A DNA stretch of 64,000 nt from Gammaproteobacteria bacterium (lineage in GTDB: Bacteria > Pseudomonadota > Gammaproteobacteria > DRLM01), in contig JAHFRV010000009.1 of NCBI GenBank assembly GCA_023266095.1, positions 471-64,470 of the forward strand, read 5' to 3'. A model generated the notes under the pieces. That model was not told where the DNA came from and did not search any database. It saw nothing but the letters and a program-made list of their open reading frames with translations. Each line of letters starts with the position of its first letter. Position 1 is the first letter of the stretch. Below are positions 39,067 to 60,267 of the stretch, one piece after another. The position numbers and the translations under genes are program-made.

Positions 39067-40182
39067 CTATTCCGCGCCCGGCGCGCGAGCGGGGATCACC
39101 GGCGTGCCCGAACGCACGTCCAGATTCTGCGCGCGGTGGCGCAGACAGTGATCCATCAAGACCAGCGCCAGCATGGCCTCGGCGATGGGTGTGGCGCGGA
39201 TACCGACGCAGGGATCATGACGGCCGGTGGTGATGACGTCGACCGGTTCACCGTGGATGTCGACGCTGCGGCCCGGCAGACGCAGGCTCGAGGTCGGCTT
39301 CAGCGCAAGACTGGCGAGGATGTCCTGCCCCGTCGAAATGCCGCCCAGTATCCCGCCCGCGTTATTGCTCAAAAAACCTTGCGGCGTGATCTCGTCGCGA
39401 TGTTGCGTGCCCTTCTGTCCGACACATGCGAAACCGGCACCGACCTCGACACCCTTCACGGCGTTGATGCACATCAACGCCTTGGCGATGTCGGCGTCGA
39501 GGCGATCGAACACCGGTTCGCCCCAGCCCGGCGGCACACCGGTGGCCACCACGTTGATGCGCGCGCCGATGGAATCGCCTTCCTTGCGCAAAGCATCCAT
39601 GTAGGCTTCAAGCTCCGTTATTTTGTTCGCATCAGGGCAAAAGAAGAAATTGTTGTTGACCTCTTCCCAATCGAAAGTCTGGTCATCGGTACGGATCGGT
39701 CCGAGCTGGGCCAGGTAACCGCGAATCTCCACCCCGTAGCGTTCACGCAGGTATTTTTTGGCGATGGCCCCCGCGGCCACCCGCAGCGCGGTCTCGCGCG
39801 CCGAGGAACGGCCGCCGCCCCGATAATCGCGGAAGCCGTATTTCTGTTGATAGGTATAGTCGGCATGGCCGGGACGAAATTGCTCGGCGATCTTGGAATA
39901 ATCCTTGGAACGCTGATCTTCGTTGTGAATCAGCAGACCGATGGGCGTGCCGGTAGTCTTGCCCTCGAACACCCCGGAGAGTATCTGCACCGCGTCGGGT
40001 TCGCGGCGCTGGGTGGTGTGGCGCGAGGTGCCGGGCTTGCGGCGGTCCAGATCATGCTGAATATCGGCGGCGGATAACACCATCCCCGGCGGACAACCAT
40101 CCACGATGGCGCCCAGCGCCGGGCCGTGGCTTTCGCCGAAAGTAGTGACAGTGAACAGGGTTCCGAAGGTGTTTCCAGACAT
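39067..40182 (-). CDS. aroC: Chorismate synthase
   Basis: [34 protein letters not shown]...[17 protein letters not shown] is the canonical AroC N-terminus. 371 aa. Confidence 0.95.
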
Positions 40183-40470
40183 GGGGGGCTATTGTAGCGG
40201 GGAATAACGGGAACGTCTCGCCCCCATGACAAAAAAGTGGAGCAGGCCTCATGCCTAAGCACCAGACGAATTGAAGAAGTTAGCTCTGATGAATTCTTAT
40301 ACGTTCATCCCGGCGAAAGCGGAAATAACTGGACTTCCAGTGTAACTTGCCCTGCACCTGGAGTGACGAGTTAACCAGAGCTGACACAACAAAAACGCTT
40401 AGCCAGGTGAACAGCTGCAATCGACGATCACCAGCGTCCCAACCCGGCCGAGCATCGTATTCCAGCTGAA

Positions 40471-41475
40471 TTAATTCCCCCCACCACTCGGCGGCGGGAA
40501 GGGCATGGTCGGCATGACGCCGAACATATTGTCCCAAGAATACGGACGGCCTGGAGCGTCTTCCTTGTTCCAGGTGCGGGTACCGGGTACCGTGTCATTC
40601 AAATTATCGTAGGACTGGTAGCCCATGCTGGTCTGGCCTTCCGCACCGGTATAGTACTGACCGAACCACGTCACTTGAGCATCACCACCCGCGGTAAATG
40701 CAGGGATAGTCGACGTACTGCCACTACCACCGGTCACGCCGCCACCCAGCCTGCCGGGATTGAGATCCCCGGCGCGACGCCGTCGATCGAAGCGCATAAC
40801 ATCGTTAGGCATATTCTCGACCGCCTTGAGGGGATCGTAAAACCGCAGATTGATACCCAATTGGCCGATGTCCCAGGCTACGCCGGTTTGATTGCCGGCG
40901 GCGTTTACATTCTGGGCAAACCAGAAGTCATTAGCCCATTGGACGCCCGGCAGATTGCTGTCATTGTGCTGTTTGATCTCCACCGTCCGGTTGGTGCTAT
41001 CGTCGGCCCAGCCGGTGTGTATCAGCGTCGTGAGATTGAACGGACCTTGGTTGACCAACGCCGCCCCATCAGTAATGGTTTGTTTAAGGGCTATGCCACT
41101 GACACTTCCCGCACTGGTTATTAAATTACTCTCTCCAGGAACAGTCGGTGTGCCGTTCACTGAATCGGCGCTGGTCCATCCCTGCCTGACAAAGCTTTCA
41201 CTGGAAAAAGACAAGGTGCTGGCGGTGCCTGTCGCGTTAGCATTGGTGATGACGCTTTGAATAAATTTCCCGTCGCTGGCGTTGATCTCCCGCTGCAGCA
41301 TACCGGGCGCTTGCAAGGGTGATGTACTACACGTCACGCCTGTCGTACATTGGGCTGTAATGGTGCCATTATTTACCGACCATTGATCAAATGGCATGGG
41401 CGCTGCGGTGAACACCGTCATCGGTGCGGCCGCAGTCATCGTGCCGAGCAATGTTACTACGAGACGTTTAGCCAT
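40471..41475 (-). CDS. Secreted protein of unrecognised family, paralog A
   Basis: Signal peptide MAKRLVVTLLGTMTAAAPMTVFTAA. Mature ~310 aa, Gly/Ser/Thr/Asn-rich, Cys pair (TAQCTTGVTC). It ends ...PFPPPSGGGN. Clearly paralogous to the adjacent gene (PFD(Q/G)WS(V/A)N(N/S)GTI, TGWA(D/A)D, QS(Y/L)DNLND(T/N)). The start was chosen within ORF 40471..41538. Confidence 0.6.
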   Translation of the reverse strand: MAKRLVVTLLGTMTAAAPMTVFTAAPMPFDQWSVNNGTITAQCTTGVTCSTSPLQAPGMLQREINASDGKFIQSVITNANATGTASTLSFSSESFVRQGWTSADSVNGTPTVPGESNLITSAGSVSGIALKQTITDGAALVNQGPFNLTTLIHTGWADDSTNRTVEIKQHNDSNLPGVQWANDFWFAQNVNAAGNQTGVAWDIGQLGINLRFYDPLKAVENMPNDVMRFDRRRRAGDLNPGRLGGGVTGGSGSTSTIPAFTAGGDAQVTWFGQYYTGAEGQTSMGYQSYDNLNDTVPGTRTWNKEDAPGRPYSWDNMFGVMPTMPFPPPSGGGN

Positions 41476-41546
41476 TGTCTGTCTCCCCAAGCTTGTTATC
41501 GCGCCGCGTGCTCGCAGCCACATTTTATTGATTAACACTAATCTTA

Positions 41547-41574
41547 TCTTAAGATTTAACTCTTAAGATTTAAC
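41547..41574. promoter_or_regulatory. Tandem 14-bp direct repeat (tcttaagatttaac x2) in the paralog B-A intergenic region
   Basis: Exact tandem duplication at 41547-60 and 41561-74. AT-rich, overlaps the stop codon of paralog B, and lies ~75 nt upstream of the paralog A start. Candidate operator/processing site. Confidence 0.3.
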
Positions 41575-42637
41575 CGCCACCACTGGTGTTTCCAGTGGGA
41601 ATAGCCGGCATGACCGGCGCTGGCCCAAAGGGATTTACCCACCAGGTAAAGGGACCGGGGGCATTAAATTCGAAATAGCGGCTAATGGGGGTGTTGTCGT
41701 TCAAGTTATCCAGCGATTGGAAACCTTGCGCAAGCCTACAACGCCCACGGGGGCGGTTTTCAATTTTACACTCACCGTCATTGCGCATCAGCTGGCCGCC
41801 CCACATGGTCGATACGGTGTCTCCCGCAGCCCACGTGATGGACTGGCCGTTTTTGAGGGCCGCGCTACCAGCGGCGGGAAGCATATTACCGCCCACTCGC
41901 CGAATGGCGACCGCCTGGCCGTCACGAAAAGTAGTACTCGTACCACCACCGCCTTCACCGCCACTCTCATCCGCCCCCACCGGCTGGACAAACAGCGTAT
42001 CGTAGTTCATGCGGTTGCCGATCTGGAGTCCGTTACTGTCATTATTACTCTGGATCGTCGTTTTGGCATCGTAGGTTTTACCCGTATTAGAGACCTCGCG
42101 TATCGTTTGCGTGATATCAACATTGGGCTGACCCGCGTCGGCCGCCCAGCCGGTTCTGATGACCGCAATATAATCGAAATTCTGAGTGGCATTGGACGTG
42201 ACATTTTGAAGTTTGATCGCTTGTTTACCGGCGATACCAAAGGCGGAAGCCGAATTCTGCTGCGAGCCCGGCGGCGGCGCCGAGGAACCCGTACCAGTCA
42301 CGCCAGCCGCCCTCACAAAACCTTCATCGTTAAATGTCAGACCGGAGAGGGGTGTACCGGTAGCCGTGGAGCCCGCAACGATGGTTTGAACATAGGTAAG
42401 CGCCCCAGGCGTGTTACCGGTGATAGACCGCTGTAAGAAACCCGGGGAAGAACCGACTATCTCACATCTGAAACCACTCGCACAGGTTGCGGCTATCGTG
42501 CCGCTGTTCGCCGACCAACCGTCGAAAGGAACGGGTGGCCCAGCGAATACGGAGAGGGGTGTCAGCGCTAATAAATACGCCACATTGTTCAGTATCCAAG
42601 CCGGAAGCTTATTATTTTCGCAGTTCATATTTGCCAC
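41570..42637 (-). CDS. Secreted protein of unrecognised family, paralog B
   Basis: N-terminal signal peptide (…AWILNNVAYLLALTPLSVFAGP), Cys pair (AATCASGFRC), Gly-rich stretches (ESGGEGGGGTS). It ends ...PTGNTSGGG. Same length (355 aa) and shared motifs with paralog A. Confidence 0.6.
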   Translation of the reverse strand: MANMNCENNKLPAWILNNVAYLLALTPLSVFAGPPVPFDGWSANSGTIAATCASGFRCEIVGSSPGFLQRSITGNTPGALTYVQTIVAGSTATGTPLSGLTFNDEGFVRAAGVTGTGSSAPPPGSQQNSASAFGIAGKQAIKLQNVTSNATQNFDYIAVIRTGWAADAGQPNVDITQTIREVSNTGKTYDAKTTIQSNNDSNGLQIGNRMNYDTLFVQPVGADESGGEGGGGTSTTFRDGQAVAIRRVGGNMLPAAGSAALKNGQSITWAAGDTVSTMWGGQLMRNDGECKIENRPRGRCRLAQGFQSLDNLNDNTPISRYFEFNAPGPFTWWVNPFGPAPVMPAIPTGNTSGGG

Positions 42638-42858
42638 CCGATTTATTTATCGTTAGGGTTCTTGACCACGTGCGCAGCTGCGGCTGCAAACCAGTTCAGT
42701 GACCACCCTTATACCCCACCTTCTCCACCCAACCTTCGCCCTTCCCTGGTATTGGCTGAAATGTCCCCCCGCCTTATAAATTTGTTTAGCGCAGCTAGGG
42801 CTAAGCCTCTTTCCTATTCAACACATTCCGGGCGAAGGAACGCAAGGCCTACGCAGCC

Positions 42859-44925
42859 TTAACTTACCACTTTGACGCGTTGCTTACGCAACCTTGCACC
42901 TATTGCCAGCATACCCAGCAGCATAGCCCAAGGCTCCAAGGCGCCACCACCGCCACCCGAGGTACTCGTCGATTCTTTCACATCGGGGGAATCGACAGCT
43001 TGGCCTGCTTCGACTACAGCAGGCTTAATAACCTCCTCACTCATTGGATCTAGGCCGGGGTTAACAAGGCTACCCCCGGTGTCACCACCGATACCCAGCC
43101 CCGGGCTGGCGACTCCCGTGCTGACAAAGACACGTTGTGCCGAACAATCAACGGCATCTGTAGCAAAGGGACTCATGTTGTTCAGTTTGTTCGGTGTGGC
43201 GGGAGCAGCAACGGAACCTAGATACTCCACCGCGCCGATGTCGCGCACCTCAAGGGCTACCGCGTTATCGAGTTGATCCTTACTATTAGCCGGGCTGGCG
43301 CAGACATGTCCACCCATCCATTTAGAACTCAATTTGACGCTCTGGTCATTATTGCCGGCGTTGATGGCCGGGCTGTTCGAGTTCAAGACAAGATGGGCAC
43401 GTCCCGGCGCGCTAAAATCCGCGACGTAACTACCCACACCCGGATCTCCCGTCAAGTCGGTGAAGCTATCCGTTTCGAGGGTGACCAGCAAAGGTTCACC
43501 ACCATGGGGAACCTCACTAAGCTGGGAACCCTCGGGCAATTCCGTTGGTATCTTCTCGCAAAGCGTCGTATCACCGATGATGTTGTTACCCGCCGAGACG
43601 ATGTAGACAGGGTTGACATGAAAGTAGGGGTAACCGGCGCAGTCCTGGGGCATGCCGGGAGGCGCAGTATTGCCGGCAAGAATACTGTTCTTGAGCAGGA
43701 TAGTGCCTTTTTGAGTCAGGATGCCGCCGCCGCCATAAGTGCTTATCCCCTCTTTTCCAATACCATCGTCACCCGCATGATTACCGATGATAGTGCTATT
43801 AATTATGATAATGACACCCTCACCCCACAGCTCGTTACCCTTATCCTGGTTCTTACCGAACGGCAGGGCGTCTCTCTCAGGGGACGGGCTGTTTTCCGCG
43901 TAAGACCCAATAGCGCCGGCCCATTTGGTTGCTGTGTTCTTATAAAAAGTACTGTTGATGATAGTGAGCTTGCCGCGATTGTTCTCGACGGCACCGCCGC
44001 TGACCGATTTATTTTCGGTGAAGGTACTATTGGTGATAATCGCTTCGCCAGCTAGGTTCTCCACGGCGCCACCATCGCCATCTTGCGTTACACAGGCGGG
44101 GCGAAGGCAGGTGGTATTGCCTTTGAAGGTGCTGCGGTCAATGATCATGCGGCCAGCCACGTTAATGATGGCACCGCCCAAGGCGCCCCCTTTTTCGTCA
44201 TTTTGGGTTAGCGTGTTACCTTCGAAGGTACTGTTGTAAACTTCCAGCTCCGCCAAGAACACATTATTGGCGTCGGGATCGTTCGTGCTGTTCATGATGG
44301 CGCCGCCTTCATCACCCCCGGCATTGTCTTTAAAGGCGCTGTCTCGAATGATGGTTATACCCTCATTAAGGATGGCACCCCCTCTATTACCGTGTTTGAA
44401 GCCCCACCTAGCGTAGCCGTTCTTCAGAGTGAGCCCCTCAAGCTGTAACTTGCCGCTGGGCAGCACGTGGAAAAAACGAAAATGGTTGGAAGTCTTATCG
44501 CCTCTCGGACCGTCACGGTTGATCTCAACCTTACCGGCTTCTCCCTTGATGGTAATATCGGAAGTTATGAGGGGGAGGCCATTGGGGCCATAGGGATATT
44601 CTTTCCAGCGCCTTATCGATCCATCAGGATCCGTAACTGTAATTATATCGTAGTATTCTGATTTAACCTTGGTCAGCGAGTAGACGCCCGCTTCGAGATT
44701 GATGATATCCGGCTCGGCAGTGGCATTGGCGTCCTTGATCGCTTGAATCAACGCCTCTGTATTGCCAGCCTTGACCGTATACTCCGCTGCCGATGCAGTT
44801 TGCTGTGGCGCGAAGATCAAGCCGGCTACACCAAGGAAGGGTAGAAAAACAAGCAACAGACGAGATAAATCACTGTGCTTGGAACTCATATCTCTTTTAA
44901 TTTTCATTGTTATGGTGCCACTCAT
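42859..44925 (-). CDS. Large secreted right-handed beta-helix protein with Pmp-type (GGA[ILV] / FxxN) repeats and a C-terminal PEP-CTERM/GlyGly-CTERM-like sorting tail
   Basis: Signal peptide (LSRLLLVFLPFLGVAGLIFAPQQTASA). Repeated GGAILNEG, GGAIMNST, GGALGGAIIN, GGAVENLAG plus NSTFEGN, STFKGN, NSTFTEN, NSTFYKN, NSTIIGN motifs, as in polymorphic-outer-membrane-protein beta-helix repeats. The extreme C-terminus is STSTSGGGGGALEPWAMLLGMLAIGARLRKQRVKVVS (Gly run, L-E-P, hydrophobic helix, basic cluster). Confidence 0.7.
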   Translation of the reverse strand: MSGTITMKIKRDMSSKHSDLSRLLLVFLPFLGVAGLIFAPQQTASAAEYTVKAGNTEALIQAIKDANATAEPDIINLEAGVYSLTKVKSEYYDIITVTDPDGSIRRWKEYPYGPNGLPLITSDITIKGEAGKVEINRDGPRGDKTSNHFRFFHVLPSGKLQLEGLTLKNGYARWGFKHGNRGGAILNEGITIIRDSAFKDNAGGDEGGAIMNSTNDPDANNVFLAELEVYNSTFEGNTLTQNDEKGGALGGAIINVAGRMIIDRSTFKGNTTCLRPACVTQDGDGGAVENLAGEAIITNSTFTENKSVSGGAVENNRGKLTIINSTFYKNTATKWAGAIGSYAENSPSPERDALPFGKNQDKGNELWGEGVIIIINSTIIGNHAGDDGIGKEGISTYGGGGILTQKGTILLKNSILAGNTAPPGMPQDCAGYPYFHVNPVYIVSAGNNIIGDTTLCEKIPTELPEGSQLSEVPHGGEPLLVTLETDSFTDLTGDPGVGSYVADFSAPGRAHLVLNSNSPAINAGNNDQSVKLSSKWMGGHVCASPANSKDQLDNAVALEVRDIGAVEYLGSVAAPATPNKLNNMSPFATDAVDCSAQRVFVSTGVASPGLGIGGDTGGSLVNPGLDPMSEEVIKPAVVEAGQAVDSPDVKESTSTSGGGGGALEPWAMLLGMLAIGARLRKQRVKVVS

Positions 44926-45804
44926 GGTGCCTCCACGGATCGTTCGTCATTATAAAAACGTTTTGATCACCTTTACTTATCGCATTTTCTAATCTTAAAA
45001 GCTAACTGGAGGAAGAACAGTACCGAGCAAGCCTCGCGGATGCGTAAAGCGGGATGCGTAAAAAAGATGATGCCATGCGAAAAATCATTATTGGCAGACA
45101 GGGACTGATCCCGATGTTCCGCCGCAGTGAAGCCGGATTTATGGCCTTTAACCGTGATTCCATGGCAAAAAGAGCGGGGATAGCCGCAACAGCCGCACAA
45201 GCCGAAGCCAATGGGATAAACGCCACGGACGCTGACATTAACTGCATCATTTTTCCCCCAACTCTTATAATTATCATTCATTGCGCTTGAGGCTGAGACG
45301 CGCATATAACCTGCATTAAACTGATTTGGAGTGCGCCTGTCAAGCTGTAGTGCTATCCCGGTAGCCCAACCCCGCTCCATCCGATTGATTACTTAAGCAC
45401 ACTCTGATCAGTTGCGCAGTTATGCGATACTGGCTGCGATCATTGTGACTGCACAAGCTATCTGGCGAAGAACTTTCAGCAACACTTAGTGAAATACACC
45501 ACACCGATCCACGCCAGGTCAATACGCCTTTGGCGGCACGGGGTTAAGGCCCTCGCGGGACACGAGTGTGACTCACCGTGATCATCGCGGAACTTGCACT
45601 GGCGATATCCTGCTGGTCCAGCGGCGATCTTGCAGTTGGCGCAAGTCTGCAAGGGTGGAAAGGCCGCGAGGCTGATGACATGAAGTGGGTAAATAGGCAG
45701 TAATCTAGACTGTAATTGATCAACTTCGCAATATCCTCCCGGATTTCAGGCCTATTTGCATCCAGGCGACATAGGGCGCGCGTAGATCAGAGGTTCCTTA
45801 ATAC

Positions 45805-48800
45805 ATGGCTTTACACGATTTTCACCCCGCCGTCGCCGCCTGGTTCACCCGGCACTTCGCGCAGCCCACCGAGGCTCAGGCCCAGGCTTGGCCCGCGATA
45901 CGCCGTCACCAACACACCTTGATTGCGGCGCCGACCGGATCTGGCAAGACACTGGCGGCCTTTCTCGCCGCGATCGACGAACTGGTGCGCGAAGGCCTTG
46001 TCACGTCCTTGCCCGATGAAACGCGTGTGTTGTACATTTCGCCGCTCAAAGCCCTCTCCAACGACATTCAGAAAAATCTCGCGCAGCCGCTGGCTGGCAT
46101 CCGCGACGAGCTGTTGATGCACCACGGCGCGGATGTCGACATCCGCGCCGTGGTGCGCACCGGCGATACACCGGCGGGCGATCGGGTGCGTATGCGCCGC
46201 CTAGCGCCGCACATCCTGGTAACCACGCCGGAGTCGCTATTCATTCTGCTGAGCTCGGACTCGGGCCGGCACATGCTGAAAACCGCGCGCAGTGTGATCG
46301 TCGATGAAATCCACGCGCTGGCCGGCAACAAACGCGGCGCGCATCTGAGCCTGTCGTTGGAACGCCTCGCCGCACTGTGTCAGGAACATCGAGGCCACCG
46401 GCCGACCCGCATCGGCCTGTCGGCGACACAAAAACCGATCAAAGACATGGCGCGGTTTCTGGTCGGTGCGGCCGGCGGCGAATGCACCATCATCGACACC
46501 GGCCACGTGCGTGCCCGCGATCTCGCCATCGAAGTGCCCGGCTCGCCGCTGCAAGCGGTGATGGGGACCGAAGTATGGGATGAAATCTACGACCGCCTCG
46601 AACAACTGGTCGCCGAACACCGCACGACCTTGATCTTCGTCAATACCCGCCGCCTCGCCGAACGCGTCGCGCGTCATCTCGCCGAACGCATCGGTGAGCA
46701 ATCGGTCACGGCCCACCACGGCAGCCTGTCTCGCGAACACCGCCTCGACGCCGAACAGCGTCTCAAGGGCGGCCGCCTGCGCGCGCTGGTCGCCACCGCC
46801 TCACTGGAATTGGGCATCGACATCGGCGAGGTCGATCTGGTCTGTCAACTCGGTTCGCCGCGGGCGATCTCGATCTTCCTGCAACGCGTCGGCCGCGCCG
46901 GTCACGCCGTGCATGCCACACCCAAAGGCCGTTTGTTTCCGCTGTCGCACGACGAACTGGTCGAGTGCACGGCGCTGCTCGACGCGGTGCGACGCGGCGA
47001 ACTCGATCGCATCCACATTCCCGACCATCCGCTCGATGTACTCGCGCAGCAGATCGTCGCCGAGGTGGCCAGTCGGGAATGGGACGAGCAAGCGCTGTTT
47101 GAGATTTTCCGCCGCGCCTGGCCTTACCGCGAACTCGCGCGCGATGATTACATCGCGGTGGTGCGCATGCTCGCCGACGGCTACACCACGCGCCGCGGTC
47201 GGCGCGGTGCTTATCTGCACCGCGACGCGGTCAACGGCCGCTTGCGCGCGCGGCGCGGCGCACGCCTGACCGTAATCACCAACGGCGGCGCCATTCCCGA
47301 TTTGTTCGATTACGACGTGATTCTGCAACCCGAGGGCTTATTCATCGGCAGCCTCAATGAAGACTTCGCTTTCGAGAGTCTGCCCGGCGACATCTTTCAA
47401 CTCGGCAACAATTCTTACCGCGTACTCAAAGTCGAGCAAGGTAAAGTTTACGCCGCCGACGCCCACGGTCAGCCGCCGACCATGCCGTTCTGGCTCGGCG
47501 AAGCGCCGGGTCGCAGCGACGAATTATCGCTGGCGGTGTCACGGCTGCGCGAACTCATCGCCGCCCGTTTGCAGGAAGGTACGGAGGCGGCGCTCGTCTG
47601 GTTGCGCGATATCCTGCACCTGCCACCCGCCGCCGCGCAGCAAATCGTCGATTATCTCGCCGCCGCGCAGGCGGCGCTCGGTGTGCTGCCTACGCAACAC
47701 ACCGTGGTGTTCGAGCGTTTCTTCGACGAGACCGGCGACATGCACTTCGTCATCCACGCGCCGTTTGGTTCGCGCATCAACCGCGCCTGGGGTCTCGCGC
47801 TGCGCAAACGTTTCTGCCGCAAGTTCAACTTTGAATTGCAGGCCGCGGCGATGGAAGACAGTATCGTATTATCGCTCGGGCCGACGCACAGCTTTCCGCT
47901 CGCGGAGGTGGCCAGTTATCTGAAATCGTCGAACGTGCGCGAGGTGTTGATCCAGGCTCTGCTCGACGCGCCGCTGTTCGAGACCCGCTGGCGCTGGAAC
48001 AGCAATATATCGCTGGCGGTGCCGCGCAATCGCAACGGCAAACGCATCCCCGCGCAGTGGCAACGTTCGGGCGCGCAGGATCTGGTCGCGGTGATTTTCC
48101 CTGATCAGCTCGCCTGTCTCGAAAATATCGCGGGTGATCGCGAGGTGCCCGACCACCCTCTCGTCAAACAAACCATTCACGATTGTTTGTACGAGGCGAT
48201 GGACATCGAAGGCCTCGAACACCTGTTGCGGCAGATCGAAGCGGGTGAAATCCATATCGCGCCACGCGACCTCGCCGCGCCGTCGCCGTTATCGCAGGCC
48301 ATCCTCAGCGCGCGACCCTACGCTTTTCTCGACGACGCGCCCGCCGAAGAACGGCGCACCCTCGCCGTGCAGCAACGCCGCTATCTCGACCCGCAGAGCG
48401 CGGCGGAACTGGGCCGTTTGAATCCCGAAGCCATCGCCCAAGTGCGCAGCGAGGCCTGGCCCGAGGCGCGCGACGCCGATGAATTACACGACGCGCTCAA
48501 CTTGTTCGGCTTTATCACCGAGACCGAAGGCCGGCGCGACAACCCCTATTGGCCGTCGTTATTGCAGCAACTCATCGAGCGGCGCCGCGCCACACTACTC
48601 CGCACACCGCACGGTGAAAATATCTGGGTGGCGACGGAACGGCTCGCCGAGCTGCTCCGCTTATTTCCCGCTGCGCCGCTCACGCCGCCGATTGCCCCGG
48701 TGATCGAACCCGCCGATAAAACCTGGACCGAAGCAGCTGCCTTGCGTGAAATCATGCGCAGCCGTCTCGAAGGCTTGGGGCCGGCAACAGCGACCCAGCT

Positions 48801-59601: not shown

Positions 59602-60267
59602 CTACTGACTGAAAAAATCCTTGGGAAATCCAGGATGGATTTGCAGGCCGTCCATGTCAACGGTCTCAACCAGCCTGCCGCTCCTACCGAAGCTCAGCAC
59701 CTTTAGAGGAAAGCCAGTCGTTCGATCCAGCCATAACTGGTAACGGGAAACGGCGTCGATCGAGACATCGTCACCGACACTGACTCGCACATGCAGCGCT
59801 TGCTGCCCGCCTACCACCTCCACGCCCATCAGCTCGGTTTTGCCTCGCGTCCGCAGCTTTTGCACATTCTGAAATAAAGCTCCCACATCCGAGCGGTCCA
59901 CCCGCTGGCCGGTGGGGCTTTGAATCAACTTGTTTTCGGGGCTCAGGTTCAAGGCTGGAAAACTGCGGTGACCAAATGGCCAAAGCGTCACTCGCCGGGT
60001 CAGCGGATCGTATACCAGCACGGCGCCTTTATACGACGTCTCAAATTCCATGCGTACATAACCGGGCTTTTTGAAATAATAACGAATGATCTCGCTTTTA
60101 CCCGTGCTCAGCGATGTCAATCTCACGCCATAACTCTCGACTGTCTGATAAAAATCGATGGCGGCCCTAAGCGGATCGGCGGTATCGGCGGTATCGGCGG
60201 TATCGGCGGTATCGGCGGTATCGGCGGTATCGGCGGTATCGGCGGTATCGGCGCCAAGATGAATCAT
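59602..60267 (-). CDS. LolA-like/lipoprotein-carrier-fold protein with N-terminal (Ala-Asp-Thr)x9 repeat
   Basis: MIHLG(ADT)9ADPL... then ~180 aa beta-rich domain (YYFKKPGYVRMEFE...VLVYDPLTRRVTLWPFG...). No signal peptide is seen. The repeat is encoded by (GATACCGCC)n. In-frame stops lie immediately upstream of the ATG. Confidence 0.5.
   Translation of the reverse strand: MIHLGADTADTADTADTADTADTADTADTADPLRAAIDFYQTVESYGVRLTSLSTGKSEIIRYYFKKPGYVRMEFETSYKGAVLVYDPLTRRVTLWPFGHRSFPALNLSPENKLIQSPTGQRVDRSDVGALFQNVQKLRTRGKTELMGVEVVGGQQALHVRVSVGDDVSIDAVSRYQLWLDRTTGFPLKVLSFGRSGRLVETVDMDGLQIHPGFPKDFFSQ
60160..60252. repeat. Perfect 9-bp tandem repeat (ggcggtatc)x9 plus partial units, in-frame within a coding region
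   Basis: Nine exact head-to-tail copies at 60168-60248 with partial copies at each end. The unit length is a multiple of 3, so it encodes (ADT)n on the minus strand. Confidence 0.9.

Follow-up and report, generated by a model that had tools for sequence, protein, structure and literature searches.

The 64,000-nucleotide stretch of DNA analyzed here (the window) carries on its minus strand a gene for a beta-helix repeat protein, followed by two paralogous genes of an orphan family (Table 1). The ATG of the beta-helix gene lies 5 nt downstream of a GGAGG ribosome-binding site, and the encoded protein begins with a signal peptide that, inspected by eye, consists of a basic n-region, the hydrophobic segment LLLVFLPFLGVAGLIF and TASA/AE. 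By translation, the C-terminus reads STSTS-GGGGG-ALEPWAMLLGMLAIGA-RLRKQRVK-VVS (STSTSGGGGGALEPWAMLLGMLAIGARLRKQRVKVVS in full, followed by the stop codon), and the GGGGG, L-E-P, helix and basic cluster quoted in the original prediction correspond exactly to this ORF. No other ORF of the window has a Gly run that leads into a hydrophobic C-terminal stretch and a basic cluster, i.e. the visible 64 kb of the host genome contain one tail-bearing protein.

Table 1. Positions of the beta-helix gene, its C-terminal elements and the neighboring genes within the window
Feature	Position	Strand	Details	Basis
Beta-helix gene	42859..44925	(-)	688 aa; ATG start with GGAGG ahead	ORF listing and translation
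Sec-type signal peptide	44788..44925	(-)	residues 1-46, predicted cleavage after A-S-A	inspection by eye
'Choice-of-anchor Q'-like region	43222..43389	(-)	residues 513-568	NF041518, sub-threshold
Linker	42958..43215	(-)	residues 571-656, low-complexity Ser/Thr/Gly/Pro	conservation and AlphaFold
Poly-Gly signature	42943..42957	(-)	G657-G661, proposed cleavage region	sequence and ortholog alignment
Hydrophobic membrane segment	42895..42942	(-)	ALEPWAMLLGMLAIGA, residues 662-677, containing the non-conserved L-E-P	
Basic cluster	42871..42894	(-)	RLRKQRVK, residues 678-685, expected to be cytoplasmic	sequence
Stop codon of beta-helix ORF	42859..42861	(-)		
First downstream paralog	41570..42637	(-)	orphan secreted-protein family	conserved next to beta-helix gene
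Second downstream paralog	40471..41475	(-)	334 aa from ATG at 41475	exact sequence in protein collection

Judged by its sequence and its predicted structure, the passenger of the tail is a secreted right-handed beta-helix protein of the Chlam_PMP-repeat type. The Pfam Chlam_PMP repeat (PF02415) is matched with 21.8 bits against a cut-off of 20.6, homologs carry PF13229 and PF02415, one of them being named a right-handed parallel beta-helix repeat protein, and AlphaFold predicts repeated three-strand beta-helix rungs over residues 48-445 in a model with a mean pLDDT of 50.5, of which only the beta-helix core is usable. Most large repeat proteins with such a beta-helix are located at the cell surface. 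The region that resembles NF041518 scores 16.2 bits, below the 25-bit cut-off, and is a resemblance only; the motif DQ.G....R.DIGA.E is common to the passenger and distant relatives. Some distant beta-helix relatives have other C-terminal anchors, and passengers whose relatives carry other anchors have been described by Haft for GlyGly-CTERM families (PMC3237569). In a genome-collection scan the beta-helix family occurred in only three species representatives, and a metagenome scan added one close ortholog (L012) together with distant relatives lacking a comparable C-terminal tail. Assemblies with the gene include GCA_947259075.1, GCA_945787555.1, GCA_945787615.1 and GCA_947259325.1, whereas a relative with a 482-kb contig contributed no beta-helix ortholog to the homolog hits. 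A relationship to rhombotarget A (TIGR04212), the gene of which adjoins rhombosortase, was rejected (13.8 bits against a cut-off of 295); the PMP-repeat relatives of ~590 aa lack any C-terminal anchor.

The close beta-helix family is always followed by the two orphan paralogs, and this gene order is repeated at three related loci (L002, L005 and L006). The second paralog has the invariant motifs of the first, to which it is 34% identical. The first has no match in Pfam or NCBIfam and only 12 homologs among 5.8 billion proteins, and the AlphaFold model for the orphan family is all-beta and, with a pLDDT of 45, unusable. Both paralogs terminate in Gly runs (SGGG, GGGGW) and lack the helix. A promoter and terminator scan of the three-gene module gave nothing above chance.

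Conservation and composition of the C-terminal tail

The family tails compared here are that of the window protein and those of seven orthologs (P0002-P0008) at 37-63% identity. Over seven aligned orthologs, mean column identity is 0.66 in the tail core, 0.68 in the folded body and 0.45 in the linker, which is the least conserved region, rich in indels among the orthologs and, in the AlphaFold model, below a pLDDT of 50 and without predicted secondary structure. On the basis of this alignment the tail is more than a chance feature, its core being about as conserved as the folded body. The eight family tails share the order S/T, G3-5, [A/S], [L/W/F], [E/G], x, [W/Y], helix and Arg cluster: three Gly residues are invariant across all aligned orthologs, the Gly run is followed by a small residue with a conserved aromatic four residues later, and an Arg-rich cluster occupies the position of RLRKQRVK in every ortholog. 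The Gly run is encoded by GGT/GGC repeats and varies between three and seven residues in the relatives, with seven in the 92% identical ortholog L012. Cys is absent between linker and helix in the window protein, P0002-P0008 and L012.

In the window tail the helix, a 16-residue stretch, abuts the Gly run directly without a spacer, and AlphaFold places a helix at residues 666-673 within it. In all 12 tails compared, 16-19 residues separate the last Gly from the first basic residue, and the pooled helix composition is 26% Leu, 17% Ala, 14% Gly, 6% Ile and 5% Val. The published bias of GlyGly-CTERM helices is 34% Leu, 13% Gly, 10% Ala and 6% Ile, with Val and Ile depleted (PMC3237569).

Apart from the window protein, L-E-P is present only in its two closest orthologs, P0002 (63% identity) and L012. 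At its position the more distant orthologs have SLGPW, AWGAW, AWGLW, AWGPW or AFGVY, so that the tripeptide is replaced by L-G-P, W-G-A, W-G-L, W-G-P or F-G-V. By sequence comparison, L-E-P is thus a local quirk that relatives lack, which makes the finding a fairly ordinary one.

Sorting-signal models, related tails and the processing enzyme

Comparison of the tail with TIGR02595 (PEP-CTERM) and TIGR03501 (GlyGly-CTERM), which the original prediction had proposed, left TIGR02595 silent; TIGR03501 was reached by the ortholog P0003 (16.2 bits against the cut-off of 15.5) and not by the window tail, which it failed to match at E<=10. TIGR02595 and the other PEP-type models (PEPxxWA, VPLPA, IPTL and others) had no match in the window or ortholog tails at E<=10. 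The best NCBIfam scores of the window tail are all below threshold, namely 15.1 bits for MYXO-CTERM (TIGR03901, cut-off 20) and 11.2 bits for the GlyGly-type MprA tail (cut-off 19.7), and the seven-Gly variant matched no curated model. MYXO-CTERM is the best NCBIfam model for several family tails, at 13-21 bits against 20, and most tails of the whole family score higher on it than on GlyGly-CTERM with both scores sub-threshold; only P0003, also without a Cys, exceeds 20 bits (21.2). TIGR03501 is passed by just one of the eight family tails; if these are GlyGly-CTERM tails, the curated model misses most of the family, an observation that would be useful for annotation. The 2011 curation of GlyGly-CTERM itself needed species-specific models for the recovery of all members (PMC3237569).

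An unbiased HMMER scan in which a profile of the tail was run over 1.84 billion representative proteins recovered, outside the family, just three proteins and P0195, a tandem-repeat protein in which the match is confined to the helix part. Few matches are expected when a profile of only 38 positions is searched in a library of this size. Of the three outside tails, those of P0199 (20.5 bits) and P0197 (17.2 bits) pass TIGR03501, and both fail MYXO-CTERM; when the P0199 tail (GGGGALGPWSLLLVAILASVRRR) is aligned by eye to that of the window protein, 12 of 23 positions match. A search of a word-indexed protein database with the tail profile returned short unrelated fragments only, its candidate list being swamped by Gly words. 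Tails of the same kind are also found on unrelated proteins encoded in the related genomes: a 243-aa protein at L002 (SSGGGGGPLDLF...RRLR) and a 1043-aa DUF7948 protein at L003/L004 (SSSGGGALDVW...GRKH). Within ~20 kb, such a genome thus contains two passenger families, the beta-helix and the 243-aa protein in L002 and the beta-helix and the DUF7948 protein in L003. The original prediction had reckoned with a tail unique to this one protein as the mark of an ordinary anchor; the tail class in fact recurs on orthologs and on unrelated proteins.

No exosortase or rhombosortase is encoded in the 64-kb window, as the original prediction had stated and as a scan of all sizeable and all multi-pass membrane ORFs bore out; the membrane proteins present are ABC permeases, an SDF symporter, an MFS transporter and a cytochrome b561. 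Type II secretion genes are also absent from the window, and beyond it, on the left side to the contig end ~1 kb past the SMC gene, no new membrane protease was seen. At five related loci (L002-L006) the surrounding ~20 kb contained no rhombosortase, and the neighborhood of P0199 (L052) contained neither a rhomboid nor a rhombosortase. A 189-aa four-helix ORF at L003/L004 was considered as a rhombosortase and rejected, having no NCBIfam match. A missing protease beside the gene is expected, since rhombosortase adjoins its target only in single-target genomes (PMC3237569). In a literature search covering the host lineage, no paper tied Tenderia to rhombosortase, GlyGly-CTERM, exosortase or PEP-CTERM.

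Interpretation of the tail

Combining these data, we suggest that the secreted beta-helix surface protein probably ends in a divergent sorting signal of the GlyGly-CTERM type. The window protein has the tripartite tail layout, the Cys-free signature, the spacerless Leu/Gly/Ala-rich and Val/Ile-poor helix and the putative Sec signal peptide of GlyGly-CTERM proteins, and its tail lacks a TIGR03501 score at or above 15.5 bits. GlyGly-CTERM and a PEP-CTERM variant were the two classes between which the original prediction had hesitated: the former is backed by the layout of the tail, its lack of Cys and the composition of the helix, by the TIGR03501 scores of P0003 and the nearest outside tails and by the recurrence on unrelated proteins in related genomes, whereas the latter is undercut by the distribution of L-E-P and the silence of the PEP-type models.

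In the PEP-CTERM reading, L-E-P stands in for P-E-P and the cleaving enzyme is an exosortase, which may represent a dedicated subfamily. The tripartite architecture is identical to that of PEP-CTERM and L-E-P-W immediately precedes the hydrophobic stretch in the window protein, P0002 and L012. Nevertheless, such a variant is extremely unlikely: Glu occurs only in these three proteins, Pro returns in only two of the more distant orthologs (P0003 and P0006), the invariant feature is the Gly run and not Pro-Glu-Pro, the window tail has no match among PEP-type models at E<=10, and exosortase is absent from the window and from every related locus examined. The suggestion that a LEP variant could mark a dedicated exosortase subfamily is therefore unsupported, L-E-P being confined to the closest orthologs and no PEP-type model matching. 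An ordinary, uncleaved C-terminal transmembrane anchor, tethering the beta-helix to the inner membrane with the protein facing the periplasm and the Gly run serving as a flexible hinge, would accord with the lack of a processing enzyme in the 64-kb window, with the failure of the window tail at every curated sorting-signal cut-off and with the fact that Gly/Ser-rich linkers are common. We consider it unlikely, because the GGG abutting the helix, the aromatic at a fixed offset and the Leu/Ala/Gly bias of the helix are kept at 37-63% identity while the linker drifts, the signature recurs on unrelated passengers of related genomes, the nearest tails elsewhere are bona fide GlyGly-CTERM tails, and large beta-helix repeat proteins are in general found at the surface.

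An improbable alternative is a sorting class of its own, restricted to this lineage (poly-Gly, small residue, aromatic, x, x, aromatic) and handled by an enzyme other than a canonical rhombosortase, e.g. a general GlpG-type rhomboid, a CPBP/myxosortase-like protease or another enzyme. It draws on the better scores of most family tails on MYXO-CTERM than on GlyGly-CTERM, although under both cut-offs, on the near absence of profile matches among the 1.84 billion proteins, on the Gly-run endings without a helix (SGGG, GGGGW) of the two conserved neighbors and on the ability of V. cholerae GlpG to cleave VesB, if inefficiently (PMC6219818). However, MYXO-type signals require an invariant Cys that is missing from the window family, the low match count is the expected one for a 38-position profile against such a library, and TIGR03501 is passed by P0003 as well as by two of the three tails from outside, so that the family grades continuously into canonical GlyGly-CTERM. 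It is quite unlikely that the tails form a distinct subclass (S/T, three to seven Gly, a small residue, Leu or an aromatic, an acidic residue or Gly, x, an aromatic and a short helix) recognized by a divergent rhombosortase or by a protease of another kind and maybe tied to the orphan pair; within such a subclass, the orphan proteins might, for instance, associate with the processed C-terminus or mimic it, the three proteins forming a surface module.

If a GlyGly-CTERM-type signal is treated in analogy to VesB of Vibrio cholerae, the N-terminal signal peptide would direct passage through Sec, and the helix ALEPWAMLLGMLAIGA and the cytoplasmic Arg/Lys cluster would retain the protein in the inner membrane. 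A rhombosortase, i.e. an intramembrane protease of the rhomboid family encoded elsewhere in the genome, would then cut at or just after the poly-Gly, against the helix, the new C-terminal Gly would be linked to a lipid that contains glycerophosphoethanolamine, and a type II secretion system would transfer the protein to the cell surface. These steps are taken from Gadwal 2018 (PMC6219818) and Roberts 2026 (PMC13393428), and it is by this analogy that we infer that the tail is cleaved and a lipid attached, that type II secretion is required and that a rhombosortase exists. If this model is correct, it would extend rhombosortase-type sorting to an uncultured, biocathode-associated gammaproteobacterial lineage, and the beta-helix protein and its two orphan neighbors would probably be cell-surface components. 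The tail would be of a known sorting kind and reveals no new sorting mechanism.

Comparison with known sorting systems

The likeness to PEP-CTERM (TIGR02595) lies in the tripartite C-terminal layout and in the E-P just before the helix of the window protein; the family differs in having no P-E-P, an unconserved Glu and an invariant Gly, and in leaving the models silent. With the choice-of-anchor beta-helix surface proteins the passenger shares PMP-type repeats, the DQ.G...R.DIGA.E motif and distant relatives with different anchors, whereas NF041518 is matched by only 16.2 of the 25 bits and the close family is restricted to a handful of uncultured genomes. MYXO-CTERM (TIGR03901, myxosortase) resembles the tail in its Gly-rich signature, similar helix and Arg cluster, and it also depends on type II secretion; in contrast, its invariant signature Cys is absent from all orthologs, the window tail remains sub-threshold at 15.1 bits and the host is outside Myxococcota. 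The Cys-free signature is what separates GlyGly-CTERM from MYXO-CTERM (PMC3237569).

The system closest to the tail is GlyGly-CTERM (TIGR03501, RrtA/RssP, Vibrio cholerae VesB). In both, the signal lies at the extreme C-terminus behind an unstructured linker, a Gly-rich, Cys-free signature abuts a short helix that is rich in Leu, Gly and Ala and leads into an Arg cluster, the passenger is Sec-exported and extracellular (as predicted here), unrelated passengers carry the tail (here in related genomes) and the protease gene is non-adjacent. Co-occurrence with a rhombosortase in the same genome is the defining feature of the GlyGly-CTERM/rhombosortase system, and the host genome is seen here over 64 kb only. 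The differences are that the window run has five Gly (three to seven in the relatives) against the common SGGS/GG, that the family conserves an aromatic four residues past the run, that the window tail is sub-threshold on TIGR03501 and that an acidic residue, E664, stands atypically at the start of its helix. None of the Chromatiales genera looked up is present among the GlyGly-CTERM proteins listed in 2011 (Table S1), and the host of the tail described here differs in belonging to an uncultured gammaproteobacterial lineage that is labelled Chromatiaceae and was recovered from biocathodes.

The beta-helix protein and its C-terminal tail

The tail of the beta-helix protein is a real, conserved sorting tail. 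Translation of the 688-residue ORF, whose ATG is preceded by GGAGG, ends exactly in the tail sequence that the original prediction had described, and in a six-frame screen of the window this is the sole real gene with a Gly run ahead of a C-terminal hydrophobic stretch and a basic cluster. Searches gave eight close relatives (P0002-P0008 from the protein database, 37-63% identity, and the metagenomic ortholog L012, 92%). Among the seven aligned orthologs, the tail core is conserved equally with the folded body (mean column identity 0.66 vs 0.68), and the most variable part is the linker ahead of the tail (0.45, with many indels). GGT/GGC repeats encode the Gly run, which comprises seven residues in L012, five in the window and three to five in the other orthologs, so its length is free to vary.

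At the N-terminus the sequence reads like a Sec signal peptide, with a basic n-region, LLLVFLPFLGVAGLIF and then TASA|AE. In P0002-P0007, as in the window, the start M-S-G-[TA]-I-[TSP] is conserved, and the n-region of ~20 residues ahead of the hydrophobic core is, for a signal peptide, unusually long and unusually conserved in the close orthologs. The body carries Chlamydia-PMP-type beta-helix repeats (PF02415, 21.8 bits vs a cut-off of 20.6), and PF13229 and PF02415 are found on database relatives. An AlphaFold model based on seven orthologs, of low overall confidence (mean pLDDT 50.5), has regular beta-helix rungs at residues 48-445; from residue 451 on it holds no confident structure, with a short helix at 666-673.

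Tails of the beta-helix protein and its close relatives
Protein	Tail
Window	GGGGG-ALEPW-AMLLGMLAIGA-RLRKQR
L012	GGGGGGG-ALEPW..., rest as window except final residue (N for S)
P0002	GGGG-ALEPW-GMLLGILAIGA-RLRRQR
P0003	GGG-SLGPW-ALMIMMGVTAFA-RRRR
P0004	GGGGG-AWGAW-GILLSMLVIGA-RLRRQR
P0005	GGGG-AWGLW-SLLLGMLAIGL-KSRRR
P0006	GGG-AWGPW-GILSLGVATLGV-RLRRRR
P0007	GGGGG-AWGLW-NLLLGTLVIGL-KSRCRHR
P0008	GGGGG-AFGVY-GALLMAAFAGLSGY-RRR

Assignment of the tail to a sorting class

The original prediction left a choice between a PEP-CTERM variant, with L-E-P as a PEP-like signature, and GlyGly-CTERM. Only the three closest sequences (window, L012 and P0002) have the Glu of L-E-P, and the Pro recurs elsewhere only in P0003 and P0006; instead, GGG is the invariant element across the aligned orthologs. 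PEP-CTERM-type models gave no match to the window or ortholog tails even at E<=10. Given that neither Glu nor Pro is kept, that GGG is invariant and that these models are unmatched, the PEP-CTERM/exosortase reading is not supported.

GlyGly-CTERM is a C-terminal tripartite domain with a signature of at least one Gly and never Cys, a helix with an unusual abundance of Leu (34%), Gly (13%) and Ala (10%) and little Val and Ile, and one or more basic residues past the helix; the MYXO-CTERM signature always has Cys (Haft and Varghese, PMC3237569). According to a later myxosortase paper, the signature adjoins the helix without a spacer. All of these GlyGly-CTERM features are found in the tails of the window family: none has Cys in the signature, the segment from the Gly run to the first basic residue spans 16-19 residues, and its pooled composition in 12 tails is L 26, A 17, G 14, W 7, I 6 and V 5%. 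The curated-model scores are borderline. The window tail has no match to TIGR03501 (GlyGly-CTERM), and its best scores are all sub-threshold (MYXO-CTERM, 15.1 vs 20 bits; GlyGly-type MprA tail, 11.2 vs 19.7). P0003 exceeds the cut-offs of both TIGR03501 (16.2 vs 15.5 bits) and MYXO-CTERM (21.2 vs 20 bits), yet lacks Cys.

For a measure of likeness that does not rely on one model, a profile of eight family tails was run against 1.84 billion representative proteins. Just eight reached E<=0.001: four family members (three orthologs plus a fragment of a further one, P0196), the tandem-repeat protein P0195, matched in the helix part only, and P0197, P0198 and P0199. Among the last three, P0199, an FG-GAP protein ending SGGGGALGPWSLLLVAILASVRRRRRVGV, and P0197 have tails that score above the TIGR03501 cut-off (20.5 and 17.2 bits) and below that of MYXO-CTERM, so the family grades into canonical GlyGly-CTERM. 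The GlyGly-CTERM alternative is supported by the sequence features and by P0003, P0197 and P0199, though not by a TIGR03501 match of the window tail itself, which is most likely a divergent GlyGly-CTERM and not a PEP-CTERM variant.

Nor is the tail unique to one protein: the class also occurs on unrelated proteins in the related MAG loci L002 (a protein of 243 residues, encoded 6.4 kb upstream of the beta-helix gene and ending SSGGGGGPLDLF...RRLR) and L003/L004 (a DUF7948 protein, ending SSSGGGALDVW...GRKH). The A-L-[DE]-x-W motif recurs in the DUF7948 protein tail.

Coordinates of the features (window positions unless a locus is named)
Feature	Position	Strand	Remark
Beta-helix ORF	42859..44925	-	ends STSTSGGGGGALEPWAMLLGMLAIGARLRKQRVKVVS
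Start and n-region of the signal peptide	44863..44925		
Gly run	42943..42957		
First orphan paralog	41570..42637	-	C-terminus 41570..41590, TSGGG*
Second orphan paralog	40471..41475	-	C-terminus 40471..40495, SGGGN*
Direct repeat, 14 bp	41547..41574		TCTTAAGATTTAAC, two perfect copies
Three-gene module	40001..46000		52-56% G+C
MucB/RseB-like ORF	59602..60267	-	longest reading
Tandem repeat, 9 bp	60171..60253		9.3 copies, 98% matches
L012 ortholog	L012 1..1632		
243-residue protein	L002 2825..3556	-	ends SSGGGGGPLDLFTLCALLLAWPLAFARRLR
DUF7948 protein, 1043 residues	L003/L004 3267..6398	+	ends SSSGGGALDVWLLILSGLFFAVCGRKH
Orphan-family protein	L002 12244..14396		
Orphan-family protein	L002 7099..9150	-	
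Orphan-family protein	L003 12107..14146		

The orphan neighbors

Two paralogs of an orphan secreted family (~320-355 residues) always come after the beta-helix gene. The family is unmatched in Pfam and NCBIfam, and a set of 5.8 billion proteins contains only 12 homologs. Its invariant motifs are P..F..W near the N-terminus, TGWA, QS.DN..D and FG..P.MP; its AlphaFold model is all-beta and too poor for use (pLDDT 45). Beside aroC, the gene order is kept in L002 and L005, and L006 has it without aroC; in L003, P0008 is followed by a fused two-domain version, and such fused versions exist in related genomes. The window paralogs end in Gly runs and distant homologs in GGGGW*, GGGRGW* or GGGGWGGR* (alignment A3 columns 395-411), resembling the signature part of the sorting tail, yet without a helix or basic cluster after it. 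The module is lower in G+C than both flanks (60-65%, aroC and lhr sides) and might have been acquired together, though it lies beside aroC in two related MAGs too.

The 14-bp repeat starts over the first paralog's stop codon and extends into the spacer before the second. Elsewhere in the window, the 9-bp repeat encodes (Ala-Asp-Thr)n at the N-terminus of the MucB/RseB-like ORF in its longest reading, though the true start may lie downstream of the repeat.

Processing and comparison with known systems

Strict co-occurrence with rhombosortase is part of how GlyGly-CTERM is defined (PMC3237569). The original prediction saw no sortase in the window, and we agree: every large ORF is assigned (SMC, QueF, a glycerol-metabolism cluster, an oligopeptide-type ABC system, a FabI-like reductase, an SDF symporter, PpiD, Lon, ClpX, ClpP, trigger factor, a GGDEF protein, an MFS transporter, AroC, Lhr helicase, PheT, PheS, IF3, ThrRS and a molybdopterin oxidoreductase with cytochrome b561), and the multi-pass membrane proteins are only transporters and the cytochrome. 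In a genome-collection scan, three uncultured species carried the family ('Gammaproteobacteria bacterium Biocath_Gamma_008', 'Chromatiaceae bacterium FCS_M_Gamma_041' and 'Chromatiaceae bacterium FCS_M_Gamma_042'). In each related locus, the ~20 kb surrounding the beta-helix gene has no rhomboid, exosortase or CPBP protease, and likewise at the P0199 locus. Because the protease gene adjoins its target only in single-target genomes (PMC3237569), this is as expected where a genome has several targets.

What is described here is the substrate-side anatomy only; for the mechanism we draw on VesB of V. cholerae (PMC6219818; PMC13393428). By this analogy, the beta-helix protein would be (i) exported via Sec and (ii) held in the inner membrane by its C-terminal helix, (iii) rhombosortase would cleave it at the Gly run or directly behind it, (iv) its new terminal Gly would be joined to a glycerophosphoethanolamine-containing moiety, and (v) type II secretion would take it to the surface. 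The tail would add another member to GlyGly-CTERM, a known sorting class. Distant beta-helix relatives have quite different C-terminal anchors, or none, which is the "choice of anchor" behavior described for GlyGly-CTERM passenger families and fits the weak resemblance to choice-of-anchor Q shown by residues 513-568.
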